Made by a program: the position numbers and the translations under genes. From an uncultured Candidatus Saccharibacteria bacterium (GTDB taxonomy: Bacteria > Patescibacteriota > Minisyncoccia > Phycocordibacterales > DAORIS01): a stretch of DNA of 64,000 nucleotides. Location of the stretch: the NCBI GenBank assembly GCA_964644035.1, contig CAZXUH010000001.1, forward strand, positions 393,093 to 457,092, written 5' to 3'. A model generated the notes under the pieces. It was not told the origin of the DNA and made no database searches. It saw only the letters and a program-made list of their open reading frames with translations. This document shows positions 5,101-55,631 of this stretch, in pieces; the first letter of the stretch is position 1; the number at the start of each line of letters is the position of its first letter.

Positions 5101-8100
5101 TACCTACCCTACCTCCCAATGCTGCGAGAAGAACATTTGCATACTCTACACCAGCTTTTAGACCAGGATTGATTGTAACGTTCCCAGCTGTTCCAGAAGT
5201 TCCTGCATCACCAGCAGTAATCGTAACTGCTCCACCTGTACCAGTACTACCGGCTGAGCCAGCAGTGATACTTAGACTTCCACCTACCGTACTAGCAGCA
5301 CCTGAAGCAGAACCAGCCGCCAATACGAGATTTCCACCAAATGAGTTCGAACCAGTACCTGCACCCGATCGAATAGTAATGACACCACCACCTGTACCAC
5401 CATTACCACCTTCTCCACCAATAATAGTGACCCCTCCACCAGCATCTGTTCCCGATCCACCCAACACTCTGAGAGCTTCAGGTGCATCAGAAGAAGAAAC
5501 ATCAGAAGCATTTAGTCCCTCTATAGAAAGAGTTGCGAGCGGAGTACTTGAACCAATACCTACCATACCATTTTGAAGAATCGAGAAGTATTCATTGCCA
5601 CCCGCTGAAGCTGCGTCGAAGATACCAAAACGATCGGGACCTGTGGCTGAGATCGACCATGTAGTTGTACCTACATTATATGTTCCAGCCCAGACCGAAT
5701 TCCATCGTGCACCTGTTGCTCCGAGATTGTATGCTGACATATTGCCGCTGTATGGTGCACTTGGAAGAATATCTCTCATCATCGATGTGCCAGCGACAGT
5801 AAGAAGACTTGTAGGTGTTGTTGTACCAATACCGACATTGCCCGTCATATAGTAAATATCATTTCCTGTCTGTGTCCATTTTGATAGACCAGGAATACCA
5901 AGTGAAGATGTTGATGTCCATACTGGAGCTGCAGTTGAACCTTGTGACAAAAGCACCTGACCAAGTGTACCAGCATTGTTATTGAAGAGCGTTGCACCTG
6001 ACTGATTAATTTCAAACATCTTCGTATTTGTTGAAGATGAAATGAGGAATGGGGTTACAGTTCCCGATCCAGTAACCTGAAGTCTAGAAATAGGTGTTGT
6101 TGTACCAATACCAACATTTCCAGCTGTAGGGTTGATGATCAAATTGCCTCCTGCAGAAACGAGATATGAGTACAGACCACTTACCCCCAAACGTATACCT
6201 CCACCAATTACACCAGTTCCCCAGTTGTTTGAATTAGTATTGAAACTTATTCGAGGATCTGTTGTCCAGCTGAATGTAGCTTGAGCATCAACACCAGAAC
6301 CTACATCAACCGTAAGATTTCCTTCAGCCACAGTTCCTATTTGCAATTCTGACGTTGGGATAGGTGTAGCAATTCCAACATGTCCATTCGCATTTATTCT
6401 AAATATTGATGCGCCAGTGGATGATGCAATATCTACAAGAGGTACTGTTGGAGCAGTCGATGAACCTCTGATTGCGAGCTGTCCGCTTGGTGTAGATGAT
6501 CCAATACCAAGTCGTCCTGAGAGATAGTTGTGATTTTCACCAACCATATACAAACCATAATTGACCTGTCCGCCAGTAGGATTGCCATAGTATGAGACAA
6601 CTGATGTAGGGCCGAAAATAAATGATACTCCAACTGGAGTTGATTTAACACCAATAAGAGCTCCTGATATATCATAATCACCACCTATGTCTATGATTGT
6701 TTTTGAACCCGCAATCGTAACAGATGAACCACCTGTTGTGAATGCAAGATCAGGATTTGAACTACTTGGATTAATAATGCCAACATTGCCAGTAACAGTA
6801 AGTTTTGAACTTGGATTGACTGTATTGATTCCCACATTGCCGTTTTGCAATATTTCAAGCAAACTTACATTTGTAGACGAAGCGATTCTGAATGGATTCG
6901 TTCCACCCACTCCTGTGACTTGGAATGTGGTCAGAGGTGTTGAAGTACCTACAGCAACTTTTCCTGTGTTGTAATAGATATCGGATCCATTGGTGATCCA
7001 TTGTGATGACGATGCAATATTTGCAAAACCAAGTGAAGATGTTGCTACCCATAGCGGTGCAGCAGTTGAACCTTGTGACAAGAGAACCTGGCCAAGAGTT
7101 CCTGCTGAATCATTAAATAATGTTGCGCCAGACTGATTAATCTCAAACATCTTCGTATTTGTTGAAGATGAAACAAGGAATGGTGATGAGCCACCTGCAC
7201 CTGTGATTTGCAGACGAGCAAGTGGGGATGTAGTGCCAAAACCTGAGTTTCCGCCAGTCAACATAGTCAATTTGACCGTAGCTGTTGGACCAATCATCAA
7301 AGAGCTAGCAACATCGTTGACGATAAAGTTACCAAATACGAGTGAGTTGGCTGCGGAAACCGTGTTGAACGAACCAACTGCTGTACCATAACCAACATTG
7401 ATCGTGTTGGAATTACCGATTGCAGTTGAGTATCCATCGATTGGACCGCTTCTACCATTTACAATATTGAAACTTCCGAGTGCCGCGTTGTATATACCAC
7501 CTCCGACATTGTTACTACCTCCGATTGCGATGCTATTACCAAGCGTTGATGTGGCACTATTGTATTGACCGATAATGATTGATTCTGGGCCGCTCGCAAC
7601 TTGGTTGTGTGCTGTTCTTCTGCTCTGAATATCAATTGATCGTGCACCACGTGCCGCACCGCTGGTATCTCCCATAATAATCGCTCCACTTGATCCAGGA
7701 TGACTTACTGAGAGTGCGCCGAATACTGTTGTTGTTCCAACAACAGAAAATATTGATGCTGGAGATGATGTACCCACACCAACACTACCCGAACTATTCA
7801 AGACGGACAGGACAGGACTGTCAGCACTGCCGTTTGACGTACTGTCACCAATAAATACACTACTTGCGCCGTCGGGTTGGATATACAAATCTGCCCAAGC
7901 ATTAAGAGCGGCACTATGTCCTCCAAGCCATGCTTGAGAATTGTATTCGCCCATCAAAAATGCAACATTGTCTCCGCCGGCTACAATTCTTCCTCTCCAT
8001 GAGGCAGTCGATGCGCCTGTACCGCGTACATAGAGTTTTGCACCGCCATTTGCCGAAGGAATATCGTTGGAACCAATTCCAACATTACCGTTTTGCTGAA

Positions 8101-11100
8101 CTTCAAACAAAACAGTATTCGTTGACGAAGCGATTCTGAATGGATTCGTTCCACCCACTCCTGTGACCTGGAGTGTTGTGAGGGGTGTTGAAGTTCCTAC
8201 TCCTACTTTGCCTGCAGTGTATGAAAGATCATTGACTGTTTTTGTCCAGTAGTTGATCGAGGCTGGGAGTGTTGTTGAACCCAAGATATAGTTCGATACA
8301 CGTTGATCTGTGTAATAAAGATTTGAACCTTCTGCAACATTTGTTGTCAAAAAGCCAAGCGATGAAGTTGAAGTCCAGAGTGGAGCTGCAGTTGAACCTT
8401 GTGACAGAAGTACTTGGCCCAAGGTTCCATTTTGATTGTTGAATGCTACAGCGCCAGATTGATTGATTTCGAACATCTTCGTATGAGTCGATGAAGAAAC
8501 CAAGAATGGGTTGTTAGCACCTCCTCCTGTTATTTGCAATCGCGCAAGCGGAGTTGTTGTGCCGAGACCAACATTGCCACTGAAGTAAGCTCCCCCATCG
8601 ATAAAGCTTATATAAGAAGTGCCGATACTCGTTCCACTTGACTGTGTAGTCGAACTAAACACCAATTGTCCTGAGGCATTGGTATATGTGTAACCCTGCA
8701 ATGCATCACTAATCGATGTTCCATGGCGCCACTCGATCGCACCACCTCGTCGTGGAGGAGTAGGTCCTGCCGAAAGACCAGTGAGCACAATTTTTCCTCC
8801 ACCAGTCTGCCAATCACCAACATACAGATCTCTTCCCGCATTTACAAATACATCGCTATAAAATGTTGACGTACCTGATCCCAAAACATTGAGCACACCT
8901 TCAGCTGATATATTTCCTGCGAAGTAACCATTACCAGCAACTGAAAGTTTTTCAATTGGTGATGAACTTCCAATACCGAAGTTACCGTTTTGCAAAAGTT
9001 GGAGCATTACCGCATTTGTCGAAGATGACACTCTAAATGGATTCGTGCCCCCTACTCCTGTGACCTGGAACGTGGTCAAAGGCGTTGAAGTACCTACAGC
9101 AACTTTTCCAGTGTTGTAGTAGATATCAGATCCGTTGGTAATCCACTGTGATGAAGATGCAACGCTCGCAAATCCAAGCGAAGAGGTTGCTACCCATTGA
9201 GGCGCTGCAGTCGAACCAAATGATCGGAGAATAAATCCTGATGTTCCGGCATCGTTGTTGAAGAGTACAGCACCTGATTGATTGATTTCAAACATCTTCG
9301 TATTTGTTGAAGAAGAGATGAGGAAAGGACTTGCTGTGCCCGCACCTGTTACCTGAAGTCGAGCGATAGGTGTCGTGGTACTCAATCCAATATTTCCAGT
9401 ACTCAAATCACCAAAAAGCGCATTGCCTATGTTTAAGAAATTGGAATCAGAAGCTGAGCGAGCAAGTACTGAACCGATAAGTATGTTATTCGCACCTGTC
9501 GTTGAGGTTGTACCAACCCGATAACCGAGCATAATGTTATTTGATCCAGATGTAAGTGCTCCGCCTGACTGATAACCCACAAGCGTATTGGCAGAATTTC
9601 CTGTACCACTGCCCTGACCTGACAAATAACCAATTGCTACGTTCGCAGAACCTCCGTTGTTTTGGCTTCCAGCGTGGTTACCAATGTAGACGTTTACCAA
9701 TCCACCAGCATTTGAAGATCCTGCACCAGTACCAAGAAATACGTTGTTGCTACCTGTACTGCCACTACCAGCCGAATTACCTAAGAAGAGGTTGTTGCCT
9801 CCCGAAACGTTACCTGTACCAGCATTCGATCCGAGGAAGATATTGTCCGAGCCACCAACATTGGAGAATCCAGACTGATTTCCAACAAAAATGTTGTCAT
9901 TACCGCTTGTATTTGAAAATCCAGACTGATTTCCAACAAAGAAGTTATATGCTCCGCTTACTCCAGCAGCAACAGGTGTTGCACCTCCCAAAAACAAGTT
10001 GCCGGTCGTTGTTGCCAATCCAAAGAGCTGTCCGCCTGAGTAATAACTCGTGCTATCAGTGATACCAGCTACCGTAAGTGCTGCCCATGGAGTGGTTGTA
10101 CCAACACCCACCTTTCCTGTCGCACGATAGACATTACCCGATCCAAGAGTCCAATAGTTAATCGAAGCAGGAAGTGTTGTTGAACCAAGTACATAATCAG
10201 ACACCCTTTGGTTTGTGTAATAAAGATTTGTTCCTTCTGCTACGTTTGTTGTGAGAAAACCAAGTGTTGAAGTAGAAGTCCAGACTGGTGCAGCTGTTGA
10301 ACCTTGCGACAAGAGAACCTGTCCGAGTGTTCCGTTTTGATTGTTGAATGCTACTGCACCCGACTGATTGATTTCAAACATCTTCACATTTGTCGAAGAT
10401 GAGATGAGGAATGGGGATGAGGCTCCAGCACCAGAAACATGTAATCGAGCTATTGGTGACGAAGTACCAATCCCAACTAGACCATTTCCAGTTATTGTCA
10501 TAAGTTCAGTAGCGCCTGAGCTAAAGAACGAAAATGCTTTGCCAAACGCTGTACCCGATGGCTGTGATGTACCTGAGAATAAATCAACACCGTAATTACC
10601 ATTGAGTTGGAAAACATTTACCTGTGCAAAATCTGATGGTCTGCGGTACTTTATAGGATTGTTGTAATCAAGAACGATTGAGCCATTTGCAATATCGAGT
10701 TTCTGTTGGGGGGTTGTTGTACCGATACCAACATTGCCTTGGACAATCAATCCATTCGTAGGAGGTGTCTGGTTGTAATATCCTGTACCAATTGCCGCAT
10801 ATCCATTAACACCAAGTAATGTTCCAACATATATTCCGCTATTGGTATCACCAGCAACACCAAGCTGCAATTTTGCACGAGATGCACCATCTCCAGTCAC
10901 CGCATCGAGCGTTGGCAATGAACCTGCACCACCGATCACCATACGTGCGAAGTTGAAGCTTGCATTTCCAGCACCATCGGGATCAGCGAACCAGATTTGT
11001 TTGTTGTTTACCGCATTGTATCCGAGTGAGAACAAGAAACCGCTACCGCTACTTACTCCGCTGAGTGAGCTGCCGGTAAATGCAATACCACGAGTAGAAG

Positions 11101-14100
11101 TTGCTCCAGTTGCTGATTGAGCAACAGTAAAGTTCGCAGCGGGAGTTGATGTGCCGACTCCGATATTCCCATTGTTCAAAATAGTGAAGAGTGACGTTCC
11201 GGTTGAAGATGAAACGTTGAATGGATTGACTCCACCTGTTCCTTGAAGATTGAATGTATACGATGACGATGATGCATTGATACCAACAACCGATCCATTC
11301 TCTCGGAGAATAGAATCTGTAAATGCGCTACCTGTCCATCGTGGCATGAAGCCCGATGTGAGAGAGGCGGTGATTGCTGATGAAGTAAAGCCAAGTGAAG
11401 ATGTTGATGTCCAAACAGGAGCTGCTGTTGAACCTTGTGACAAGAGGACCTGACCCAATGTTCCAGCCTGATTATTAAAGAGGGCTGCACCTGATCTATT
11501 GATTTCAAACATCTTCGCATTTGTTGAAGATGAAATAAGGAAAGGACTTGCTGTACCTCCACCTGTTAGCTGAAGTTTTGCAATAGGTGTAGTTGTACCA
11601 ATACCGATATTTCCTGAAGAATTAATTGTCATATGAACAACACCAATACCCGCTCCATCTCCAGTCATAAACTGTAGATCATTAAATGTGCTATCACCAG
11701 CAACAGTACCAATTACAAGTGCGTTGTTTTGTGCTCCTGTAACGACGTCTCCAGCAGAAGTTGTAAGTGCTGAGCCAACAAAACCAAAGTACCCTGTGGT
11801 GAGAGAACCATCCTGGAGCAAGGAGATTCCAGGGTTGTCATTCTCATCGTTATTATCAGTATCAGAATCAATTACAAATAAACCGTCGCCTGCTATACCA
11901 CCACTAACATGAAGACGACCGCTTGGAGACATAGTGCCGATACCGACATTTCCGTTTTGCAAAATCTCAAACAAACTTGCATTTGTCGATGAAGAAACTC
12001 TGAAAGGATTGGTACCACCTGTTCCCCTTACTTGAAAAGTATTGAGCGGTGTTGATGTTCCTACACCAACTTTTCCTGCAGTGTATGAAAGATCATTAAC
12101 TGTTTTTGTCCAGTAGTTGATTGAAGCAGGAAGTGTTGTTGAGCCCAAGATATAGTTCGATACACGTTGGTCTGTGTAATACAAGTTTGAACCTTCGGCG
12201 ACGTTTGTTGTGAAGAATCCGAGAGAAGATGTTGAAGTCCATAGAGGTGCTGCAGTAGAACCTTGTGAAAGTAGTACTTGGCCAAGTGTTCCGTTTTGAT
12301 TGTTGAATGCTACTGCACCTGACTGATTGATTTCGAACATCTTGGTATTTGTCGAAGATGAGACGAGGAATGGATTTGATCCTCCAACTCCTGTTACCTG
12401 CAATCGCGCAAGCGGAGTAGTTGTACCTACACCCAGATTTCCAGTTGATGAGATAGTGATCTTTGCAGAATCACTTGAACCAATCTGAATACTATTTGCA
12501 ATTGAGTTGTTGATGTTTTGTCCAATAATTGTCGCATCTGCTGCCGACACAATGTTGTTGTAACCAAAAATGAGTCCGTTACTTCCGCTTGAAGTATTTG
12601 CATTACCATAAAGTACTGAACCTCCGGCTTCTGCTAGGTTATCCCTACCGATAAGTACAGCATCAGACGAAGAAGCAATGTTACCTCTTCCGATCAATGT
12701 ACTATCGGCAGAAAAAGCATTTGCGCTGTTTGAGATACCAACAATAAATACATCTGCTGCCTCGTTAAGGTTCGATGATCCAAAAATAGATCCACCTGAA
12801 CCATTATTACTATTGCCCAGACCAAATGTAACAGCATTCGCTTTAGTCGAACTATTCGAGAGTCCAACTACAAACTGCTCAGTTTCAACACCTCCCCCCG
12901 TCAAAGCATTGTCACGACCAAAGGATGCACATTGTTCGCAATCCACTGAGTTTGCAAAACCAATTGCAATCGTTTGAACTCTGGACGCCTGGTTGTCGGC
13001 ACCGAAAGCTATTGCATTAACTCCGCTGGCTACCCATGTAGGATCGCCATGCGAAGATTGAATATCGATAGAGCTCGTTCCGCGCGCATTACCGGAAGTG
13101 TCTCCAATCACCACCGCATTTGTAATTGGATACTTCATTGAGAGAGCTCCGTAAATGCTTGTTGTGCCAACCACATACAACGGTGTTGCTGGCGTCGATG
13201 TACCAATACCAACATTACCTGTATTGAAGTAAATGTTAGCGCCGTTATTGATCCATTGTGACGAAGTAGCTGTACCTCCAATACCAAGTGATGAAGTTGC
13301 GACCCAGATAGGCGCAGCTGTTGAACCTTGAGACAAAAGCACTTGACCAAGCGTTCCAGCTTGGTTGTTGAAGAGCGCTGCGCCCGATTGATTAATCTCG
13401 AACATTTTCGCATTTGTTGAAGATGCAATGAGGAACGGACTTGCTCCACCAGCACCCGTGATCTGAAGTCGAGCAATAGGTGTCGATGTACCAATACCCA
13501 ATCGATCGTTTGTATCATCCCAAATAAAATTGGCTGCATCGCTTGAAAGATAACCGTTGGTCGATGCAAATGGAATGATGCCAGAACTAAACGCCGTAGC
13601 GCTGCTGTTTTGAAGCAAAATATTTCTATCGGTGTTGGCTGGTGAGAAGTAAAGCTGCGTTCCGTCGTATTCGACTGCTCCAGCTTCAGCCGATGTGAGG
13701 TTGGTACCAGGGCTGAACTTGAGAGGTGCCGTGCTTGCAGATGCCGTACCAGTTGCAAGATGAAGCAAAGCGCTAGGTGTTGTAACACTGCCTCCCAAAA
13801 ACAACTTACCGTTGAGTTTGCTGCTCAATCGGTCGGTCAAATTCAATGCAATAGTGCCATTGCCATCATAGAGATTCATTGCACCACCGTCGACATGGAT
13901 AAACGATGAACCATTTTGAGAGCGGAATGAGTATGAGTACACACCAATGTTTGGAACAATGCGAGCCTGACCCCCGGCACCAGTGAAGAGGGCGATACCG
14001 TCATCAGCAACGCTGAAACGCTCTACATCAGCACTGTTGAATGTTGCAAAATGCTTATCAGAACCACTACCGGTACTGCGAACAGTCAGACGATGCGTCG

Positions 14101-14704
14101 GTGTGGATGTACCAACGCCAACATTGCCGCTTGAAGTGATCGAAAATACTGAGCTTGTGCTTGCACCAAAGAATTCTGCAACCTTGCCAGCACCAGTTTG
14201 GATGATGCTCATAAACGTCGAAGCACTTGAGGTGCTGTTGCTCTGATCGTTTCTGAAAAATGCACTTCCCGAAACACCGCCAAGTGTTCCCGCATCTTTT
14301 GCAATCATTGCTGCAGGCACTGCACCGAGAATTTTTCTTGGTGTCATTTCACTATCCGCTTCGATCGTCACACCAAGATACAACACCTGATTGAAATCAA
14401 TACTCGTCAACGAAGTTGTTGAACCGAGCATGATGCTGAAGAGTCCGTCGGTTACTTGTACGGTGTCCGACTCTGTCCAGATTGCAACGCCACCTGTTGG
14501 AACTGTGTAGAGTTTGAAAACGATATCGTAATCACCGTTGGTGACTGCAATGTTTGCCGGAGTGGTGAGACGACCTTGATAATTGATTTGAGGATTGAAT
14601 GCAGCTTGTGCAACTGGCATTTCAAAAAATCCGACGAAAGGAATTGCGAGTGATGCAACGAGAACGAGGACTGACACTGGGATGTACAATAGTTTTTTTA
14701 TCAT
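2195..14704 (-). CDS. Giant (4169 aa) secreted, fibre-like surface protein. It has an N-terminal signal/TM, a tail-fibre-like N-terminal domain, more than 8 repeated ~50-aa modules (GIGTTTP..ARLQVTG..SPFLISSSTN.KMFEINQSGA), Gly/Asn-rich beta-helix-like repeats, a C-terminal intramolecular chaperone auto-processing (peptidase S74) domain, and a Pro/Glu/Thr/Asp-rich tail.
   Basis: Single uninterrupted ORF. N-terminus MIKKLLYIPVSVLVLVASLAIPFVGFF..AQA is signal-like. The C-terminal segment CTSDQRLKKNIATL..SFNWLAENDAAERHPGFIAQEVEAVFPDLV..DGYKSLAYSSFAPYLVQGIQEL matches the conserved S74 chaperone-of-endosialidase motif set (approx DNA 2575-2900). The final ~76 aa are PE/T-rich low complexity. Confidence 0.8.
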   Translation of the reverse strand: MIKKLLYIPVSVLVLVASLAIPFVGFFEMPVAQAAFNPQINYQGRLTTPANIAVTNGDYDIVFKLYTVPTGGVAIWTESDTVQVTDGLFSIMLGSTTSLTSIDFNQVLYLGVTIEADSEMTPRKILGAVPAAMIAKDAGTLGGVSGSAFFRNDQSNSTSSASTFMSIIQTGAGKVAEFFGASTSSVFSITSSGNVGVGTSTPTHRLTVRSTGSGSDKHFATFNSADVERFSVADDGIALFTGAGGQARIVPNIGVYSYSFRSQNGSSFIHVDGGAMNLYDGNGTIALNLTDRLSSKLNGKLFLGGSVTTPSALLHLATGTASASTAPLKFSPGTNLTSAEAGAVEYDGTQLYFSPANTDRNILLQNSSATAFSSGIIPFASTNGYLSSDAANFIWDDTNDRLGIGTSTPIARLQITGAGGASPFLIASSTNAKMFEINQSGAALFNNQAGTLGQVLLSQGSTAAPIWVATSSLGIGGTATSSQWINNGANIYFNTGNVGIGTSTPATPLYVVGTTSIYGALSMKYPITNAVVIGDTSGNARGTSSIDIQSSHGDPTWVASGVNAIAFGADNQASRVQTIAIGFANSVDCEQCASFGRDNALTGGGVETEQFVVGLSNSSTKANAVTFGLGNSNNGSGGSIFGSSNLNEAADVFIVGISNSANAFSADSTLIGRGNIASSSDAVLIGRDNLAEAGGSVLYGNANTSSGSNGLIFGYNNIVSAADATIIGQNINNSIANSIQIGSSDSAKITISSTGNLGVGTTTPLARLQVTGVGGSNPFLVSSSTNTKMFEINQSGAVAFNNQNGTLGQVLLSQGSTAAPLWTSTSSLGFFTTNVAEGSNLYYTDQRVSNYILGSTTLPASINYWTKTVNDLSYTAGKVGVGTSTPLNTFQVRGTGGTNPFRVSSSTNASLFEILQNGNVGIGTMSPSGRLHVSGGIAGDGLFVIDSDTDNNDENDNPGISLLQDGSLTTGYFGFVGSALTTSAGDVVTGAQNNALVIGTVAGDSTFNDLQFMTGDGAGIGVVHMTINSSGNIGIGTTTPIAKLQLTGGGTASPFLISSSTNAKMFEINRSGAALFNNQAGTLGQVLLSQGSTAAPVWTSTSSLGFTSSAITASLTSGFMPRWTGSAFTDSILRENGSVVGINASSSSYTFNLQGTGGVNPFNVSSSTGTSLFTILNNGNIGVGTSTPAANFTVAQSATGATSTRGIAFTGSSLSGVSSGSGFLFSLGYNAVNNKQIWFADPDGAGNASFNFARMVIGGAGSLPTLDAVTGDGASRAKLQLGVAGDTNSGIYVGTLLGVNGYAAIGTGYYNQTPPTNGLIVQGNVGIGTTTPQQKLDIANGSIVLDYNNPIKYRRPSDFAQVNVFQLNGNYGVDLFSGTSQPSGTAFGKAFSFFSSGATELMTITGNGLVGIGTSSPIARLHVSGAGASSPFLISSSTNVKMFEINQSGAVAFNNQNGTLGQVLLSQGSTAAPVWTSTSTLGFLTTNVAEGTNLYYTNQRVSDYVLGSTTLPASINYWTLGSGNVYRATGKVGVGTTTPWAALTVAGITDSTSYYSGGQLFGLATTTGNLFLGGATPVAAGVSGAYNFFVGNQSGFSNTSGNDNIFVGNQSGFSNVGGSDNIFLGSNAGTGNVSGGNNLFLGNSAGSGSTGSNNVFLGTGAGSSNAGGLVNVYIGNHAGSQNNGGSANVAIGYLSGQGSGTGNSANTLVGYQSGGALTSGSNNIMLGYRVGTTSTTGANNILIGSVLARSASDSNFLNIGNALFGDLSTGNIGLSTTTPIARLQVTGAGTASPFLISSSTNTKMFEINQSGAVLFNNDAGTSGFILRSFGSTAAPQWVATSSLGFASVASSSQWITNGSDIYYNTGKVAVGTSTPLTTFQVTGVGGTNPFRVSSSTNAVMLQLLQNGNFGIGSSSPIEKLSVAGNGYFAGNISAEGVLNVLGSGTSTFYSDVFVNAGRDLYVGDWQTGGGKIVLTGLSAGPTPPRRGGAIEWRHGTSISDALQGYTYTNASGQLVFSSTTQSSGTSIGTSYISFIDGGAYFSGNVGLGTTTPLARLQITGGGANNPFLVSSSTHTKMFEINQSGAVAFNNQNGTLGQVLLSQGSTAAPLWTSTSSLGFLTTNVAEGSNLYYTDQRVSNYILGSTTLPASINYWTKTVNDLSYTAGKVGVGTSTPLTTLQVTGVGGTNPFRIASSTNTVLFEVQQNGNVGIGSNDIPSANGGAKLYVRGTGASTASWRGRIVAGGDNVAFLMGEYNSQAWLGGHSAALNAWADLYIQPDGASSVFIGDSTSNGSADSPVLSVLNSSGSVGVGTSSPASIFSVVGTTTVFGALSVSHPGSSGAIIMGDTSGAARGARSIDIQSRRTAHNQVASGPESIIIGQYNSATSTLGNSIAIGGSNNVGGGIYNAALGSFNIVNGRSGPIDGYSTAIGNSNTINVGYGTAVGSFNTVSAANSLVFGNFIVNDVASSLMIGPTATVKLTMLTGGNSGFGTTSPLARLQITGAGGSSPFLVSSSTNTKMFEINQSGATLFNDSAGTLGQVLLSQGSTAAPLWVATSSLGFANIASSSQWITNGSDIYYNTGKVAVGTSTPLTTFQVTGVGGTNPFRIASSTNVSLLEILQNGNVGINTVNPSSKLTVTGNVGIINPSSSNPDLAFTTGGSSVTIAGSKTIIDIGGDYDISGALIGVKSTPVGVSFIFGPTSVVSYYGNPTGGQVNYGLYMVGENHNYLSGRLGIGSSTPSGQLAIRGSSTAPTVPLVDIASSTGASIFRINANGHVGIATPIPTSELQIGTVAEGNLTVDVGSGVDAQATFSWTTDPRISFNTNSNNWGTGVIGGGIRLGVSGLYSYLVSAGGNLIINPTAGNVGIGTTTPISRLQVTGSGTVTPFLISSSTNTKMFEINQSGATLFNNNAGTLGQVLLSQGSTAAPVWTSTSSLGIPGLSKWTQTGNDIYYMTGNVGIGTTTPTSLLTVAGTSMMRDILPSAPYSGNMSAYNLGATGARWNSVWAGTYNVGTTTWSISATGPDRFGIFDAASAGGNEYFSILQNGMVGIGSSTPLATLSIEGLNASDVSSSDAPEALRVLGGSGTDAGGGVTIIGGEGGNGGTGGGVITIRSGAGTGSNSFGGNLVLAAGSASGAASTVGGSLSITAGSAGSTGTGGAVTITAGDAGTSGTAGNVTINPGLKAGVEYANVLLAALGGRVGIGTTTPVAQLNVKGISSAPTTPLFEVASSTNNSIFRINSNGNVGVGITNGTANLSIENPNDNTDSFAIYSGGTERFSMQVSAASTDTASFFVRNNNVMTLNEDTLVGIGTTTPAAKLQVTGSAGTNPFRIASSTNTVMLQLLQNGNFGVGVANPTTKVSLGSDTANTKLAIYDDGTSTMGLGAQSGQFRFNLYTSANNRYSFMDAPAGNEIFTILGTGKVGVGTTTPLTKFQVTGSAGSSPFRVSSSTNSSMFEILQNGYVGIGNSNPAKILTINDSGGLATMRIERTGQVNNLQADFAIQTPGGVQHFQIDVTDGASTAKTLSLNPSGGLVGVGTSSPATSLQVRGIGGTNPFRISSSTNVSLLEINQAGNVGIGTTSPLVKLDVNGGIHTNNGIIINTTGNNTTAAPGTLQIYGTNNKLRMTYPGVVDTDFVINSSGHLTITGMNNVGIGTTTPIARLQITGAAGATPLFEISSSTNHAPGKPSGTLMRVLSTGQVAIGTSTPFKGAALTIERNNADASGNSYRALGFNNTSSFLFHGGYTMDIISDASGVVQNMASDPTYDSNGIITSITCQHGGRSCSSLEVINGELRYNQRMTAALGGYLGAVLTISNGAVSIGSTTPGATFSVRGTSTRPTKIIFDVASSSGATLLRVNADGNIGIGTTSPLARLHITGIPGANSTFRISSSSNETVLEVAPNGFVGIGTSTPAYMLSVGNASTTGVIARFQNTNGTCDVDPTSSALSCTSDQRLKKNIATLSTSSSLEKLRNLRSVSFNWLAENDAAERHPGFIAQEVEAVFPDLVNTNPDGYKSLAYSSFAPYLVQGIQELDMKVTTLEQLIASTSAMLSSVSIFDRIQATLGVFTKVQTSELCLDDVCINKDQLRALLNQTGGSTPPPSNPGNGGGDEPPPDDGNASSTPPVEDETPSDEPPPEDTSADETPSEDTPADSGSEQETPPVEEPPVTEPTP
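4300..13450 (-). repeat. Intragenic near-identical DNA repeats within the giant gene, with 0.8-1.3 kb spacing
   Basis: The motif ...ctgattgatttcaaacatcttcgtatttgttgaagatga.. recurs at ~6011, 7141, 8461, 9281, 10361, 11491, 12321 and 13381, with weaker copies at 4341, 4680, 6850, 8100, 8990, 11180 and 11960. A second motif, ccttgtgacaa(g/a)ag.acctg.cc.a..gttcc, precedes each copy. Confidence 0.8.
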
Positions 14705-15117: not shown

Positions 15118-15204
15118 TTTTTACTAATAAAAGCCCTGTAGATATAATTATATCTCAGAAAATGTTCAAAATATGGCTATAAATCAAGGGTTGTTGATAA
15201 CTTT

Positions 15205-32077: not shown

Positions 32078-33115
32078 CTACTCTCCTGCTACTTCTGCAG
32101 CAGCTTTAGGGGCTTCTGGCTTAGTAGCCTTTTTGCCATGTGAGACACCATCGACTTCATAGCTTGTATTTTGAGCTTCGAAGAAATTGACCAATTCAAA
32201 GACGTCAGTAGCAGTACTCATCCATTTTGCAGGATTGGTTGCATTGTAATGCTTTGGCAAACCAAGCTCTTCGAGACGTCGATCAGCCACATATTGCACG
32301 TACTGATTCACATAGTCAGCATTGAGACCGAGAATACCGTTTGGAAAGAGATCCTTGTTGTATTCTGTTTCGAGATTGACGCCTTCGACGATAATACCCT
32401 TGATTTCATTGGCAAATTCTTCGGTGAGGAGCTCTTGGTTTTCTTCAAGAATATGCTGAACCAAATTCATACCGAACTTCAAGTGCAACGATTCATCTCT
32501 AATGACCCAGTTGATCATTGAACCGAAATTGCGCAATTGATTGCGCTGACGGAATGAAAGAGCAACCATAAAGCCCGAATAGAACCAAATACCTTCCATG
32601 ACAATGTTGGTAGCAACGAGGTTTCTAATAAAATCCATCTTGCCTTCTGTGGTTTCGATATCGAGAGTATCGTCCATCATTCTCTTCATGTATTTATTGA
32701 TGAAGTTTTCCTTGGCCTGCATTGATGGAACTTCGAGGTGCACACCGAAGACCTTTTCACGGTCAAATGGAAACGTTTCGAGCACATACTCAAAAGCCAC
32801 ACAATGATTGGCTTCTTCCCACATCTGCTTTGCGAGATAGAGGTGACATTCTGGAGATTTTAGATATGGATATACACCAAGCGCAATCGAACGATTCACA
32901 ATAAGCTCGGCTGGATTAAAGAAAGCCATAAGAAATGAAACTGCATGCTTTTCGTCATCAGTCATCTTTTCCCAGTCTTGCAAATCTTCCTTGAGAGCAA
33001 TTTCGTGAGGAAACCACGTATTGCGAACTGCCTGCTGATACAAATCATATGCCCACTGATACTTGATCGGGTGCAGATTCATGTCTTCGGGCGAGGCTTT
33101 TCCTATGAGTGGCAT
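32078..33115 (-). CDS. nrdB: Ribonucleoside-diphosphate reductase beta subunit (class I R2)
   Basis: ..EANHCVAFEY.. and the ferritin-like di-iron ligand region match RNR R2. Confidence 0.9.
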   Translation of the reverse strand: MPLIGKASPEDMNLHPIKYQWAYDLYQQAVRNTWFPHEIALKEDLQDWEKMTDDEKHAVSFLMAFFNPAELIVNRSIALGVYPYLKSPECHLYLAKQMWEEANHCVAFEYVLETFPFDREKVFGVHLEVPSMQAKENFINKYMKRMMDDTLDIETTEGKMDFIRNLVATNIVMEGIWFYSGFMVALSFRQRNQLRNFGSMINWVIRDESLHLKFGMNLVQHILEENQELLTEEFANEIKGIIVEGVNLETEYNKDLFPNGILGLNADYVNQYVQYVADRRLEELGLPKHYNATNPAKWMSTATDVFELVNFFEAQNTSYEVDGVSHGKKATKPEAPKAAAEVAGE

Positions 33116-33219: not shown

Positions 33220-35928
33220 TTACTGGCAACCGTCACAAATATTGGCTTCTGCTGGATCGCTTGAATCGACAATTCTCTTGTGTACTCTGTACTGCTTTGG
33301 TCCTTCACTACCCATAACCGTCACTGTCGATGTAGTGGTTTTAGGAGCTGGAGCCGCTGCTGAAGCAACAACTTCTTTGATCTCTTGTTTCTGAGCAACT
33401 GCCACTGGCTCACGAGTGACAACTGCCGATGGCACAGGAATTTCTTTGGCTGGTATAGAAAACGCAGCTTGAATCGGTTCGATCATTGTTTTCTGAAGAG
33501 GAGCGGCAAAGGCACCTGCTGTGACTGTCTCTGCTGCAGGCTTCTTGAATACCCTTCCGAAGCCCATTTTGCCCATAGCAGCACCTTTATTGACCTGAAC
33601 AGTGCTCTGCTCTGCAGTGTGACGAGGCTTCATGTGGAGATAATACGTCGACTTGAGACCCTTTTCCCATGCTGTGCGATAAATCTTCATTGTGTCGTCG
33701 ATATCGCGAGTTTCGAGATACATATTTCTCGAAAGTGCCTGGTCAATCCATTTCTGAGCTCGTGCAGCGACTTCGATAAATGCATACGGAGATGTTGTGA
33801 ACGAAGTTTTGTAAATATCCTTGAGATGCTGAGGAATACCAGCGATATCTGAAATATCTCCCTGCTTTTCAATGATTTCTTCTCTAACCTTTTCCCAAAT
33901 ACCCATATTCTTGAGATCCTTGACCATGTTGTGGTTAATATCGAGATACTTTCCAGAAATCTTATTTCGTGAAAATACCTGAGCAAAGCGAGGATCGATA
34001 CCAGGGGTCGTGCCAGCAACAAGACCAATGTTTGCATTTGGAGCGACGGCCATGAGTGTGGCATTGCGTACACCCTTCTTTACTTTTTCTCGAAGCAAAT
34101 CCCAATTGAGACCTTTATGCTTGCTTTCTTTTGAAACAGTGAGAGCTTTGCCACGGTTTTGTTCGAGCGTTTTGATGCTATCGATAGGCACCTTGCCCTT
34201 TGACCATTCTGATCCAGGGAAATTTTTGTAGCTGCCGCGAACTTCAGCGAGATTTGCTGATTCGTCGATAGCCATATAGCTAATGAATTCAAATATTCTG
34301 TCGGCAAAATCGTGTGCATGTTCTGAATCATATGACATACCAAGCTGTTCGATCGTGTCTGAGAATCCCATCACTCCAAGACCAATAGCGCGATTCTCTT
34401 TGTCCGACTTTTCTGCTTCAGGAATAGGCAGACGGTTGATATCGATAAGATTGTCGAGCTGACGAATAGCAAGACGTACGCTTTCTTCGAGTTTTGCCCA
34501 ACTTACTTCTTTGTTATTAACGTGAGCGGCAAGGTTGAGCGATGCAAGGTTGCAGACAGCGACATTTTCTCTATCCTGTGGAAGACAGATTTCTGTGCAG
34601 AGGTTAGACATATGAATCGTACCAGTGTTGTTGTTGAGAGCACGAAGGTTCATGGTGTCTTTCCAGTTGAGCCATGGGTGTGATGTCGTCTGAAGAGCAA
34701 CAAGAATCTGTCGGAACTGTTCCTGAGCTGGTACCTTCTTGTAGGTGCGTAGTTTGCCGCTTTCAGCCATTTCTATGTACTCTGCGTATCGCTTTGAAAA
34801 TGCGGCACCGTAGAGCTCCACAAGGTCAGGTGTCTCGGCAGGGTCAAACATATACCAGTCCCCGCCTCCTTCGACTCGCTTCATGAACTCATCGGTCATA
34901 AATACGGCTGTATTGGCAGTTCTCATGCGCATATAGTCGTCGCCGGCATTGTGTTTCCAGTCGAGGAATTCAGGAAAATCGAGGTGCCAGTTCTCCATGT
35001 AAAAAGCCAGAGCACCCTTCTTCTTTCCGCCTCTCTGAATAGCTCTAATAGCCGTATCAATAATTTTTGCAAAAGGAGTAGGACCTGTTGAGACACCGCC
35101 GAAATTTGATTTCAAAGGTGAACCGCCTGCGCGGAGTTTTGTAACCGATGCACCAAGACCGCCTGAACCTTTTGAAAGAAGCATGACGTCGGCAACAGAT
35201 TTTGCAATGTGCTCCATGTCATCTTGGATTTCAAGAAGGAAGCAGTTGGAAAGTGCGGGTCGAGTGGTGCCAGCGCCGAGATTGGTCGAGCCGCCAGCGA
35301 TATATTCCATCTTCGACATCTTGTGATAAAACTTCTTTGCCCATTCTGTAGGATCCTTTTCATTGTAAGAAAGGCCCATAGCAATACGCATAAAGAGATA
35401 CTGGGGAGTTTCTACCGACTCCTGCTTCATACCCTTGAGACCATAGCGGTTCATCAGACCATCGAGACCAGCATAGGTGAAAAGTTCATCACGAGTAATG
35501 ACGAGTGTGTCTGCAAGAGACTCTATATTGTATTTAGAGATCATGTCTGGGTGCAAACGGCTATTTGCAACACCGGCTTTGAGGTAGGTAATGAAACTAT
35601 CGCGGTGCTTTTTGCGCAAATCGTCGGCACTATCCTTGTTGTAGTCGCCAAGAACGTTACGATATATGGTTTTGAGGAGGAGACGAGTAGCTACTTTGTC
35701 ATAATCAACATCGAGTTTGATGTTTTGGACGGCCGCATTGATCGTCGCTTGGTCGAGTTCAGTGGTACCTATGCCATCATACAGCGTGAGACGCGTATCC
35801 GTCGCAATCTGCGTGACCATAGCAACAGGATCAGCCAAGCCCTTGGTGGCTCGCTCGATCGATCTGTTGATATGATCGGCATTGAACGGTTCTTTCGTGC
35901 CGTCATGCTTAGTGATGGTGATACTCAT
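33220..35928 (-). CDS. nrdA: Ribonucleoside-diphosphate reductase alpha subunit (class I, with N-terminal ATP-cone)
   Basis: ATP cone (ITKHDGTKEPFNADHINRSIE), ..NLCTEICLPQ.., ..CNLASLNL.. and a C-terminal Cys pair match class I RNR R1. Confidence 0.9.
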   Translation of the reverse strand: MSITITKHDGTKEPFNADHINRSIERATKGLADPVAMVTQIATDTRLTLYDGIGTTELDQATINAAVQNIKLDVDYDKVATRLLLKTIYRNVLGDYNKDSADDLRKKHRDSFITYLKAGVANSRLHPDMISKYNIESLADTLVITRDELFTYAGLDGLMNRYGLKGMKQESVETPQYLFMRIAMGLSYNEKDPTEWAKKFYHKMSKMEYIAGGSTNLGAGTTRPALSNCFLLEIQDDMEHIAKSVADVMLLSKGSGGLGASVTKLRAGGSPLKSNFGGVSTGPTPFAKIIDTAIRAIQRGGKKKGALAFYMENWHLDFPEFLDWKHNAGDDYMRMRTANTAVFMTDEFMKRVEGGGDWYMFDPAETPDLVELYGAAFSKRYAEYIEMAESGKLRTYKKVPAQEQFRQILVALQTTSHPWLNWKDTMNLRALNNNTGTIHMSNLCTEICLPQDRENVAVCNLASLNLAAHVNNKEVSWAKLEESVRLAIRQLDNLIDINRLPIPEAEKSDKENRAIGLGVMGFSDTIEQLGMSYDSEHAHDFADRIFEFISYMAIDESANLAEVRGSYKNFPGSEWSKGKVPIDSIKTLEQNRGKALTVSKESKHKGLNWDLLREKVKKGVRNATLMAVAPNANIGLVAGTTPGIDPRFAQVFSRNKISGKYLDINHNMVKDLKNMGIWEKVREEIIEKQGDISDIAGIPQHLKDIYKTSFTTSPYAFIEVAARAQKWIDQALSRNMYLETRDIDDTMKIYRTAWEKGLKSTYYLHMKPRHTAEQSTVQVNKGAAMGKMGFGRVFKKPAAETVTAGAFAAPLQKTMIEPIQAAFSIPAKEIPVPSAVVTREPVAVAQKQEIKEVVASAAAPAPKTTTSTVTVMGSEGPKQYRVHKRIVDSSDPAEANICDGCQ

Positions 35929-36055: not shown

Positions 36056-36064
36056 TGTGGATAA
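36056..36064 (-). promoter_or_regulatory. Perfect DnaA box (TTATCCACA on the minus strand) ~125 nt upstream of the nrdA start
   Basis: The plus strand reads cctgTGTGGATAAgtc. Confidence 0.5.
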
Positions 36065-51482: not shown

Positions 51483-52385
51483 ATGGAACAAAATTCTCAT
51501 CTCCAGGCCTATATTGATTTTTTATCCACAAAAATTGCAATGGCAAGACCTCTTAAAATAGTCTGCGACTGTTCCAATGGTCCGGCAGGGCTTATTATCA
51601 ATGCTCTCAAAAAGCAAAGAAAAGAATTTGCTGAGACTGTACTTATCAATGAAAATATTCATCCGGACTTCCCTGCTCATGGTGCCGATCCGACGACAGC
51701 GAGTGCCCTCGATGATGTTGTAAAAGCAATAAAAGAACACAATGCCGATCTCGGCGTCGTCTATGATGGAGATGCCGACCGAGCGATCTTTGTCGATGAA
51801 AAAGGCAATCGTATTCCTTCGCACGTCATTGCCGCACTCATGACTGCCAATATCCCTGGTACTCATATTGCTGACGCTTTGGTCTATGAAGCGCTTATTC
51901 ATACAGATCCTGCAATCAAAGATAGAATCATAGCTTCGAGAGTCGGCCGATACTATATCAATCTCTCAATGCACCAGCACAGCGCAGTGATGGGTGCAGA
52001 ATTTTCAGGGCACTATTATTTTGCCGATTTTTGGAATGCTGATTCTGCAGTACTCACTACGATCAAGGTTATGAATATTTTGTCTGCTGAAAAAAATACT
52101 GTCTCAGCAATTCTTAAACCCTATGGAAAACAACGTATCGATGCAGACAAGATCGGTATATCAGTATCATTTGATGAAATTAAAAAAGCCGTACTAGAAT
52201 ATATAGCCAACAAAAAAGTTACACGCACGAGTGAACTCGATGGATTGTCAGTAGATTTTGGCGAAAGCTGGATCAATGTCAGACCATCAAACACTGAACC
52301 AATCATTCGCATCACCGCTGGTGCCAGCGACATTGCACAGATTCACGAGCTGATCGCTGAATACAAGACTCTGCTTTCAAAATAA
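51483..52385 (+). CDS. Phosphomannomutase/phosphoglucomutase, domains II-IV. It starts 1 nt after the upstream stop, so this is a split or frameshifted gene.
   Basis: ..VVYDGDADRAIFVDEKGN.. (metal-binding loop) and ..GAEFSGHYYF.. match PGM/PMM. Confidence 0.7.
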   Translation: MEQNSHLQAYIDFLSTKIAMARPLKIVCDCSNGPAGLIINALKKQRKEFAETVLINENIHPDFPAHGADPTTASALDDVVKAIKEHNADLGVVYDGDADRAIFVDEKGNRIPSHVIAALMTANIPGTHIADALVYEALIHTDPAIKDRIIASRVGRYYINLSMHQHSAVMGAEFSGHYYFADFWNADSAVLTTIKVMNILSAEKNTVSAILKPYGKQRIDADKIGISVSFDEIKKAVLEYIANKKVTRTSELDGLSVDFGESWINVRPSNTEPIIRITAGASDIAQIHELIAEYKTLLSK

Positions 52386-52448
52386 GAGACAAGCAAAAAC
52401 CCTTTCACATATGTGAAAGGGTTTTTGTAATTGAGGTAACTACGGAGA

Positions 52449-53474: not shown

Positions 53475-54701
53475 TTATATTTTCCTCAGTATAAAGATAT
53501 TTTTTCTTTTATCTTTTTTTGATCGGCCGGCTTTCTTCTGCATACTCGAACCAAGCACCACACTTTCATCACCAAATCTTTTTCTAATACTAGTATCAAT
53601 ATGACTTTCTAATCCATCAAATGTCCTATTGCGCACTTGGGATCCAAACAAATCATCCTGAGCATGTGCTTCAGGTAACACGTTGAACAGTGATATGCCT
53701 GTCGCTCGGTATAAGACATTGGGCACGTATACTTCGTCGATCTTTTCTATTATTTTTGAAACAATAAGCTCTGGTGATGATGTCGGATATTCAAAATGCA
53801 GGTCAGTACGTAAGTATTGAAAGCTCTGCTTCTTTATAAAAAATGATCCCTGCCGAGCACATAGACCATAGCGACGCATGTGCTTCGTTGCCTCCTCTGC
53901 ATGCCGCGAAAGTTCTGATATAAGAAACGCTTTCGCGGAAGTGGGTGGTCTGAAAGTGCTTGTGCTCATAAAAGATTTCTGAAGATCTTTAGGACTATCG
54001 TGAATACCAAAAACCAAATGTCCATTGAGCTCAAGCCAGAGCTCGCGCATTGGTTTGTCAAAATACGTTCTGACTTGCGATTCATTTTGATCGGCAAATT
54101 CTGCAGCCGTTTTTATACCCAAGCCAGCACAATACGCTGCGGAGCTTCTGCCGATACCCCAGATTTTCGATACAGGCACTTCCCTCAGAGTTGCTTGCAA
54201 ATTTTCTTCAGTAATAACTTTGAAACCATCGGGTTTTTGCCATTTCGATGCTACTTTTGCCAAAAGCTTGTTGATAGAAAGACCAACTGAAAAAGTTGTC
54301 CCGAGTTCTTCAAACAAGGCATTCTTAATACGCCGAGCAATTTCTTCATACGATATGCCTAGCATACTGTCACAACCCGTCAGATCAGCAAAACATTCAT
54401 CGATACTGTAGGCTTCGACATGGGGTGCAAATCTGGCAACGATTGCATTCATTCTTACCGAATAGAGTTTGTACAGATCAAAATTACTTGGCAGCACCAC
54501 AACCTCGGGACAAATCTGCCTTACCCTAAACACAGGCATGGCCCTGACCACTCCTCTTGCTTTGGCTTCATAGCTCATTGCGCAGGCAATACCTTTCTCA
54601 CTACCTACAATAACCGGTTTACCTCGCAAATCTGGCCTATGTGCTATTTCGCATCCCACGAAAAAAGAATCTCCATCAACATGTAGAATGGCTTTATTCA
54701 T
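53475..54701 (-). CDS. dinB: Y-family DNA polymerase IV
   Basis: ILHVDGDSFFVGCE..RGKPVIVG.. and ..SIDECFADLTG.. match the Y-family catalytic core. Confidence 0.85.
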   Translation of the reverse strand: MNKAILHVDGDSFFVGCEIAHRPDLRGKPVIVGSEKGIACAMSYEAKARGVVRAMPVFRVRQICPEVVVLPSNFDLYKLYSVRMNAIVARFAPHVEAYSIDECFADLTGCDSMLGISYEEIARRIKNALFEELGTTFSVGLSINKLLAKVASKWQKPDGFKVITEENLQATLREVPVSKIWGIGRSSAAYCAGLGIKTAAEFADQNESQVRTYFDKPMRELWLELNGHLVFGIHDSPKDLQKSFMSTSTFRPPTSAKAFLISELSRHAEEATKHMRRYGLCARQGSFFIKKQSFQYLRTDLHFEYPTSSPELIVSKIIEKIDEVYVPNVLYRATGISLFNVLPEAHAQDDLFGSQVRNRTFDGLESHIDTSIRKRFGDESVVLGSSMQKKAGRSKKDKRKNIFILRKI

Positions 54702-54716
54702 TTTAATAGACTCCTC

Positions 54717-55283
54717 TTAATACTTTCTTACTACTCCTCTTACGATTGCTGCAATCTTAAGATCAGCTGTGGGATAAATAGGTTTGTAATTTTTATTTGC
54801 CGGTTCAAGCCACACTCTGCCATTTCTCTGCTTGAGATATTTCATTGTCCACTCGCCATCTACTTCTGCTACGACGATATCGCCATCTTTTGCTTTATTG
54901 GTCCTTTCTACAATAACCAAATCTCCTTTTGCAATATGCGCGTCGATCATGGAGTCACCGTCTACTTCGAGAATATATGTTGCTTCTTTCCTTTCAATAA
55001 GAAAATTGTCGATGCTCATGGTGTCTTTGAGCTCCTCTTCGACTGCCGATGGAAAACCAGCTTTAACAAGACCAAGCACCGGTGTTTCACTAAATAGATT
55101 GGTTGGTACGATCTTGCCCTGGCGATCTTTCTGCACAAATCCTGCTTCGACAAGTTTGTCGATGAGTTTGTAGACAGCATTTTTTGATTTAAATCCAAAC
55201 AAAGCCATCATCTCGCGATAAACGGGCATGCGCTTGTGCGTATCGTAAAAACCAATCAATTTGTCTTTGTGCTCGTTGTGCAT
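54717..55283 (-). CDS. lexA: LexA-like SOS repressor (N-terminal wHTH plus C-terminal S24 peptidase)
   Basis: N-terminal winged helix; C-terminal ..VDGDSMIDAHI..GDLVIV..EWTMKY (Ser/Lys dyad). Confidence 0.8.
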   Translation of the reverse strand: MHNEHKDKLIGFYDTHKRMPVYREMMALFGFKSKNAVYKLIDKLVEAGFVQKDRQGKIVPTNLFSETPVLGLVKAGFPSAVEEELKDTMSIDNFLIERKEATYILEVDGDSMIDAHIAKGDLVIVERTNKAKDGDIVVAEVDGEWTMKYLKQRNGRVWLEPANKNYKPIYPTADLKIAAIVRGVVRKY

Positions 55284-55285
55284 GT

Positions 55286-55516
55286 TTAAAACAAAGTAAA
55301 CCTAAGTTTAGCAAACGAACGGCCGACATTTAAGATACTCTGAGTAAATTCTGATATCCTTTCCCTGCGCATAATCTTCGTCAATGTCTCAAGAAGCAAC
55401 TTGTGTCTCTTGGCATCACTTTCATAGGGATATCCCATGAGGATCTTATTATCAATTCGCTTATTGAGCCTTGAGAGCTCGTTGCGAAGCATAAATGCAT
55501 ATTCTCTTTTGTTCAT
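55286..55516 (-). CDS. Small hypothetical protein, first gene of the lexA-dinB transcription unit
   Basis: ORF only; the LexA box lies immediately upstream. Confidence 0.35.
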   Translation of the reverse strand: MNKREYAFMLRNELSRLNKRIDNKILMGYPYESDAKRHKLLLETLTKIMRRERISEFTQSILNVGRSFAKLRFTLF

Positions 55517-55572
55517 ATAGTTGTAGCTCTATATATTAATAAGTGCACGTCCTGTGCGTGTATATAGTATAA

Positions 55573-55588
55573 GTGAACGATCGTTCAC
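55573..55588. promoter_or_regulatory. LexA operator of Cheo-box type: perfect palindrome GTGAACGATCGTTCAC (GAAC-N4-GTTC)
   Basis: Read directly; it lies ~60 nt upstream of the small ORF-lexA-dinB operon. Confidence 0.75.
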
Positions 55589-55614
55589 CTGTCAACAACT
55601 ACTGATAAAAAGAC

Positions 55615-55623
55615 TGTGGATAA
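55615..55623 (-). promoter_or_regulatory. Perfect DnaA box (TTATCCACA on the minus strand) next to the LexA operator
   Basis: The plus strand reads TGTGGATAA. The same 13-mer ctgtggataagtc occurs at 36053-36065. Confidence 0.4.
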
Positions 55624-55631
55624 GTCGGGAA

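Follow-up and report, generated by a model that had tools for sequence, protein, structure and literature searches.

What governs the lexA operon of a patescibacterium, and which of its products does that control chiefly serve? The question is raised by a 64,000-nucleotide (nt) stretch of contig CAZXUH010000001.1, here called the window, in which three minus-strand open reading frames (ORFs) of 76, 188, and 408 amino acids (aa) encode an uncharacterized small protein, the repressor LexA, and a Y-family DNA polymerase, behind a promoter with a LexA operator and a DnaA box. An earlier note, made from the letters of this DNA, had placed the three ORFs correctly and had described them as a self-regulated mutagenic-repair cassette. 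That description holds insofar as the operator does lie in the lexA promoter and the polymerase gene does follow, but comparison of ~160 related loci showed that the conserved unit is the small ORF plus lexA. Judging from the sequences compared, we consider it likely that this is the lexA operon on the chromosome of Paceibacteria-type Patescibacteria, autoregulated and subject to DnaA as a second input.

The lexA promoter and its DnaA box

The LexA operator, GTGAACGATCGTTCAC, is a perfect 16-bp palindrome at 55573-55588, upstream of the operon as first reported, and it fills the spacer between two minus-strand hexamers, TTGACA at 55590-55595 (-35) and TATACT at 55566-55571 (-10). The promoter scan that located these hexamers gave an 11/12 match to the sigma-70-type consensus with a spacer of 18 nt (TTGACA-18-TATACT), and transcription is predicted to start near 55559. 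The palindrome had been classified as a Gram-positive (Cheo) LexA box. Its GAAC-N4-GTTC core (GAACGATCGTTC, 55575-55586) fits that class, but the Cheo-type flanks, CGAAC...GTTCG, do not occur; the window and nearly all relatives have GTGAAC...GTTCAC instead. As the promoter carries the operator of its own lexA, LexA binding, and with it autoregulation, is predicted.

A 9-mer search found the DnaA box as a perfect TTATCCACA at 55615-55623 (minus strand), 26 nt from the palindrome and 19 nt upstream of the -35 hexamer. It starts 8 nt beyond the stop codon of glmS, which ends at 55632. In the window, the 9-mer agrees at all positions with TTATCCACA and with the pattern TTWTNCACA; in relatives, the match is perfect or has one mismatch. 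Described at first as a neighbor of the operator, the box is indeed perfect, but it is more than a neighbor, namely, a conserved and phased part of the promoter.

Motif counts inside the window are unremarkable. GAAC-N4-GTTC occurs once (0.89 expected), perfect 16-bp palindromes occur four times (~1.2 expected under a first-order model), and at least one such palindrome was present in 70% of simulated windows. No further LexA box was found in the 64-kb window with two mismatches allowed, and the flanks of the relatives' loci contain almost none. TTATCCACA occurs three times (0.71 expected), a number reached in 4 of 100 shuffles. One of the other two copies, perfect and on the minus strand at 36056-36064, is situated 128 nt upstream of nrdAB, i.e., an nrdA-like ribonucleotide reductase gene at 33220-35928 (902 aa) followed by an nrdB-like gene at 32078-33115; its orientation relative to the genes is the same as at lexA, and no LexA box is present in the nrdAB upstream region. 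The third copy is inside a coding region. The case thus rests on the position of the motifs in the promoter and on their conservation among relatives.

The layout of the window promoter was also found in ~145 related promoters. GTGAAC-N4-GTTCAC occupies the same promoter position in ~65 of the ~80 genome loci, with fixed arms and a central tetranucleotide that varies (GATC in the window, GTAC in the related locus L001). The -35 position is occupied by TTGACA, TTGACT, TTGACG, or TTGCA, and among 110 related promoters with a DnaA box, the -10 hexamer is TATACT in 82 and TATAAT in 24. In L001, whose LexA is 83% identical, a different gene lies upstream, and the order TTATCCACA, TTGACA, GGTGAACGTACGTTCACC, TATACT is the same, with the box 10 nt nearer the -35 hexamer than in the window. 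For the box counts, we considered 66 nonredundant genome loci anchored on the operator and scored boxes in the same orientation, at most 60 nt upstream of the LexA box, with a perfect match or at most one mismatch to TTATCCACA. A perfect box was present at 37 of the 66 loci (0.16 expected), and a box with at most one mismatch at 51 (0.71 expected). The loci together span 637 kb and contain 58 perfect boxes, of which 37 sit at this position of the lexA promoter.

The distance between the two sites follows a rule. Offsets from the start of the box to GAAC fall only in three bands ~10 bp apart, at 16-19, 24-28, and 35-38 nt. On a neighbor-joining tree of 162 LexA sequences, these classes are interspersed; the window, with an offset of 37 nt, and L001, with one of 27 nt, are sisters. 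Such scatter indicates repeated jumps of ~10 bp without intermediates, as predicted by a constraint on the face of the helix.

The box accompanies the small ORF. With at most one mismatch allowed, it was found at 47 of 52 genome loci with the small ORF and at 4 of 14 without it (P = 1e-5), and in a metagenome set, an independent sample selected by operator and -10 hexamer only, at 44 of 47 and 6 of 20, respectively (P = 2e-7), in Fisher tests that ignore kinship among loci. The box is still present in L091 and L116, where the gene order is lexA and then small ORF. The observation that the DnaA box tracks the small ORF and not lexA as such suggests that it is most probably the small protein at which the joint control is aimed.

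The predicted mRNA leader in the window is ~43 nt long, and L001 shares its last 21 nt (ATATAGAGCTACAACTATATG). In many relatives (e.g., L018, L044, L053, L038, and L064), the first ATG of the operon comes 6 to 7 nt past the -10 hexamer, suggesting leaderless mRNAs. A subset of the promoters of small ORF and lexA (e.g., L005, L007, L011, L020, L026, and L045) carries (A/G)GTCG ~5 to 10 nt downstream of the -10 hexamer, a motif absent from the window promoter. The promoter elements also occur before other genes. At L137:158-2150 (reverse complement), a DnaA box at offset 26, a LexA operator, and TATACT precede a 615-aa ORF with a restriction-enzyme-like N terminus (…LVIECK…), in place of the small ORF and lexA. 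At L138:402, operator and -10 hexamer precede a gene whose product looks like the small subunit of a phage terminase.

The three genes of the operon

The 188-aa product of lexA (54717-55283, minus strand) passes the LexA equivalog model TIGR00498 (131.1 bits; cutoff, 110.95; model positions 22-201) and matches Peptidase_S24 (E = 1e-30). The Pfam model LexA_DNA_bind scored 16.8 bits, below its cutoff of 23.7; residues 14-75 align to the N-terminal domain of Thermotoga maritima LexA (3k2z). The protein aligns to the latter over its full length, and its C-terminal domain aligns to Escherichia coli UmuD. It had been proposed to be a LexA-like S24 peptidase with GDSM and a lysine, which agrees with an alignment of 15 homologues (A1) in which the cleavage site Ala75-Gly76 and the dyad Ser111 (GDSM)/Lys148 are invariant. 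AGFPS, GDSMID, and TMK are in register with CGFPS, GDSMID, and TVK of UmuD, positions that we take to be Cys24-Gly25, Ser60, and Lys97 in E. coli UmuD numbering; the cleavage dyad is thus present and aligned to the catalytic residues of UmuD and LexA. From these comparisons, the 188-aa protein is LexA with intact catalytic residues, and RecA-stimulated self-cleavage is predicted; the window does not contain recA.

The database search returned 5,035 LexA homologues. The closest are 64 to 85% identical and almost all 187 to 190 aa long, and where a name is given, it is LexA of Patescibacteria, Paceibacterota, or Vogelbacteria. The public gene call starts the protein at Met19 (170 aa); we prefer the 188-aa start because residues 1-18 are conserved in the alignment. 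The C-terminal domain also passes the UmuD subfamily model NF007621 (114.4 versus 110 bits). The 75-residue N-terminal domain and the match to the LexA equivalog model argue that the protein is not a stand-alone UmuD. The cleavage context, AG/FPS, is UmuD-like (CG/FPS), and the cleaved fragment would resemble UmuD'.

The small ORF (55286-55516, minus strand) ends 2 nt before the ATG of lexA, which has no visible Shine-Dalgarno sequence. A single-sequence database search returned the same protein and one relative with 64% identity. A profile search retrieved 292 proteins, "hypothetical" where named (with one stray JGI label) and without a Pfam domain, and an exhaustive hidden Markov model search yielded 382 clusters at 50% identity, all of 48 to 147 aa, with no domain fusion among the cluster representatives. 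By tblastn on the related loci, the N-terminal 45 residues were found directly upstream of lexA in ~50 of 80 genomes. Three database members are encoded immediately upstream of a 188-aa S24 protein, each in a different neighborhood, and in every locus examined the small ORF adjoins lexA, including four (L052, L069, L091, and L116) in which it is downstream of lexA and yet conserved. Family alignments, with ~30 to 37% overall identity, show Asn18, Ile21, Asp22, Tyr31, and His38 to be invariant. The small ORF is therefore a real, uncharacterized gene family linked to lexA. In the public gene call, it starts at Met9 and has 68 aa; the family alignments are compatible with 76 aa.

AlphaFold2 modeled the protein as a helical hairpin with helices at residues 3-27 and 32-75; the predicted local distance difference test score exceeds 90 over residues 1-50 and is lower in the tail. 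The tail consensus, ...SWFxR...ASF(V/L)(L/F)-COOH, is basic-aromatic and rich in Phe, Ser, and Arg (18% Phe), with almost no acidic residues, and would be compatible with a clamp-binding and a membrane-targeting motif alike. The earlier note had called the protein unknown, and it remained without a family: no match was found in Pfam, NCBIfam, or PHROGs, searched member by member over 45 sequences where possible, and no hit of a PDB profile search went below E = 0.68. Weak HisKA matches, seen in 3 of the 45 members with a best E of 0.0035, were discounted as noise from helical hairpins.

The 408-aa Y-family translesion polymerase (53475-54701, minus strand) begins 15 nt after lexA, with its own Shine-Dalgarno sequence, GAGGAG, read at 54711-54716, 9 nt before the ATG. 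It contains the domains IMS (PF00817; E = 1e-44), IMS_HHH (PF11798; 1.6e-6), and IMS_C (PF11799; 6.8e-13), as expected from its initial assignment to the Y family, and the acidic motifs HVDGDSFF and SIDECF are readable in its sequence. The name dinB is not established by the curated models. All NCBIfam Pol IV models scored below cutoff (best, NF002751 with 225.9 versus 371; the E. coli-type NF002677 with 201.5 versus 256), as did the UmuC model NF002955 (154 versus 431 bits), so that "dinB" can serve as a generic label only. The best PDB match is Pol IV 7yll (4e-46). Residues 348-352, QDDLF (53646-53660, minus strand), resemble a beta-clamp-binding motif and are followed by a C-terminal extension of ~55 aa; polymerases from related loci have Q(L/P)(D/N/S)LF conserved there. 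The polymerase gene directly follows lexA in only about a quarter of the relatives and is thus a variable add-on to the operon. At L120:554, a LexA operator and -10 hexamer, without a DnaA box, are directly upstream of a stand-alone Y-family polymerase gene.

Scanning of the window revealed no internal terminator or strong promoter between the three genes, and with gaps of 2 and 15 nt they are probably cotranscribed. The neighbors are glmS, pgi, and a DedA-family gene. Elsewhere in the window, the perfect palindrome TTTCACATATGTGAAA at 52403-52418, with AAAAACCC and GGGTTTTT on its two sides, lies between convergent genes (ends at 52385 and 52449) and is probably a bidirectional terminator; two more perfect 16-bp palindromes are at 15140 and 47576. 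A single 4,169-aa ORF with an N-terminal signal-like segment, at 2195-14704 on the minus strand, probably encodes a giant surface protein.

Mechanism and competing explanations

By analogy with the LexA family, a LexA dimer on GTGAAC-N4-GTTCAC in the spacer of the strong sigma-70-type promoter would block RNA polymerase. DNA damage would lead to RecA-stimulated self-cleavage of LexA at Ala75-Gly76 by Ser111/Lys148, which would derepress the small ORF, lexA, and, in this genome, the Y-family polymerase gene with its own ribosome-binding site. DnaA bound to the high-affinity box upstream of the -35 hexamer may modulate the promoter as well, since the orientation and helical phase of the box are fixed and conserved. 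A limiting or corepressing role of DnaA seems slightly more likely than activation because the core promoter already comes close to the consensus and SOS genes are repressed by DnaA in E. coli; the upstream, phased position of the box would also suit an activator.

Going further, one may picture the lexA promoter as a two-signal integrator whose main output is the small hairpin protein, acting as a checkpoint effector or as a partner of LexA or DnaA; we put this forward tentatively, as a proposal that may well be wrong. Just as tentatively, where the polymerase gene follows lexA, the UmuD'-like C-terminal fragment of LexA, starting from GFPS, could double as an accessory subunit of the polymerase. 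Speculatively, the small protein might be an effector of damage or replication status, either a checkpoint-type inhibitor or a LexA partner. That it covaries with the DnaA box hints at an effector tied to replication; its obligate linkage to lexA and the possible translational coupling would fit a gp7-like partner of LexA just as well (see below).

Several observations weigh against the two-input reading of the operon. Boxless promoters of lexA or of lexA and polymerase are mostly basal in the LexA tree, and those with small ORF and box form one large clade, so that the Fisher tests are inflated by common descent. Promoters with and without the box have -35 and -10 hexamers of equal quality (4.9 versus 4.8 of 6 for the -35 hexamer); this gives no sign of dependence on an activator and would fit either direction of control. 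Neither a dnaA gene nor an oriC-like cluster of TTATCCACA was found in the window or the fetched loci, and the assignment of TTATCCACA as the DnaA site of this lineage is thus assumed from the near-universal specificity of DnaA. In the window, no terminator was detected between glmS and the promoter, and read-through could therefore give LexA-independent transcription. Finally, Foldseek against the PDB matched the small protein to generic hairpins only (such as Rop, designed bundles, and the SerRS arm, with E > 1), a fold that offers no functional clue.

The lack of an oriC-type 9-mer cluster tying TTATCCACA to DnaA would also fit an operon autoregulated by LexA only, with TTATCCACA an UP-like element or the site of another factor. 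The core promoter is strong without a helper, and box counts inside the window are only marginally over chance, both as that explanation would have it. We nevertheless regard it as unlikely, since the 9-mer matches the canonical high-affinity DnaA box at 9 of 9 positions. Most one-mismatch variants (TTTTCCACA and TTGTCCACA) keep the CCACA core, with others (TTATCAACA and TTATCCCCA) altering it, and an A/T-rich UP element would not retain a C-rich 9-mer in one orientation down to ~50% LexA identity. The box ahead of nrdAB points the same way, as DnaA is known or proposed to target the genes of ribonucleotide reductase in E. coli, Bacillus subtilis, and Caulobacter (PMC8203912).

The resemblance to UmuD calls for consideration of a mobile UmuDC-like mutagenesis cassette, in which the 188-aa protein would be a regulator of the UmuDAb or HdiR type, combining a helix-turn-helix with an S24 domain, rather than the LexA of the cell. 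The S24 domain exceeds the UmuD subfamily cutoff (114 versus 110), the alignment to E. coli UmuD is as good as that to LexA, down to AG/FPS versus CG/FPS, and the polymerase gene follows at 15 nt, as in umuDC, its product having an internal Q..LF motif and a C-terminal extension. This explanation is nonetheless quite improbable in light of the full-length match to the LexA equivalog model and of 188-aa homologues 64 to 85% identical throughout Patescibacteria, in varied housekeeping neighborhoods devoid of mobile-element genes. In addition, most relatives lack the adjacent polymerase gene, and glmS, pgi, and the DedA-family gene are the neighbors in the window. Even less probable, to the point that we give it hardly any weight, is that the 76-aa ORF yields no functional protein and is a leader or spacer, translated only for coupling to lexA. 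The absence of a visible Shine-Dalgarno sequence before lexA, the 2 nt from stop to ATG, and the mere two matches of the first database search are in its favor; the 292 proteins and 382 clusters with invariant polar residues (Asn18, Asp22, Tyr31, and His38), the confident hairpin model, and the conservation of the gene where it lies downstream of lexA contradict it. The autoregulated lexA operon with a DnaA-dependent input hence remains the explanation that we prefer.

Known systems and significance

The SOS network of Patescibacteria is reportedly the subject of a comparative study by Sanchez-Osuna, Barbe, and Erill (Environ Microbiol, 2017; PMID 28618189, as cited in PMC8565304). Our full-text literature search, outside whose coverage that study lay, returned no paper that connects a DnaA box with the promoter of lexA, nor one about LexA in Parcubacteria. 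The locus resembles the Gram-positive LexA (DinR) system and its Cheo box, CGAAC-N4-GTTCG, in the GAAC-N4-GTTC core overlapping the lexA promoter and in the self-cleaving S24 repressor, and it shares with Gram-positive and Patescibacteria SOS responses a translesion polymerase as a regulon member. It differs from them in the TGAAC...GTTCA flanks and in the single operator placed in the spacer and, at least from the Gram-positive system, in the position of lexA as the second gene behind a conserved small ORF and in the DnaA box of the promoter.

A precedent for joint control is found in E. coli, where uvrB, recN, and dinJ are under repression by DnaA as well as by LexA (Wurihan et al. 2018, PMC6015884). 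There, too, DnaA and LexA boxes are combined on one SOS promoter, reading replication status and damage. In E. coli, however, multiple and partly overlapping sites are found at downstream regulon members and repression has been shown experimentally, whereas here, as known from sequence, one consensus box in fixed phase belongs to the lexA operon itself, across the lineage. The umuDC and UmuDAb-type systems share an S24 protein (AG/FPS context) directly upstream of a Y-family polymerase; in contrast to them, the window encodes a full LexA with its N-terminal domain and a polymerase below the UmuC cutoff, and the linkage is absent in most relatives.

YneA, SosA, and ChiZ are division inhibitors encoded next to lexA, and Sda is a helical hairpin. 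In B. subtilis, Sda is a small checkpoint protein activated by DnaA (PMC8203912). The family described here resembles these proteins in small size, in a gene beside lexA or behind DnaA boxes, and in induction by damage or replication stress, which is here a prediction. It has no sequence or specific fold similarity to any of them and no N-terminal transmembrane or LysM domain, and unlike the genes of YneA, SosA, and ChiZ, which are divergent, the small ORF lies ahead of lexA on the same strand and is predicted to be cotranscribed with it. Phage GIL01 gp7 is a small LexA-binding protein that enhances DNA binding and blocks cleavage (PMC4551915). It is comparable as a small protein tied to LexA, and the linkage and possible translational coupling seen here would suit a stoichiometric partner; gp7, however, is phage encoded, and neither the sequence search nor the best fold matches of the small protein included it.

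The LexA box, the autoregulated lexA gene, and the SOS translesion polymerase are known biology, and this core is ordinary when taken alone. The conserved DnaA box together with the lexA-linked small protein appears to be a new variant architecture, kept over a lineage whose LexA has diverged to ~50% identity. For the small-protein family and the ~10-bp offset rule, direct tests are feasible with heterologous reporters and purified proteins, so that the organism need not be cultured. The genomes of Patescibacteria are tiny and encode very few regulators, and to our knowledge, almost nothing is known of their cell cycle control. If the proposed reading is true, a promoter responding to LexA and DnaA would reveal a way in which the sensing of damage is linked to the state of replication in a minimal bacterium, and the small protein that is always linked to lexA would be a candidate for the missing effector.

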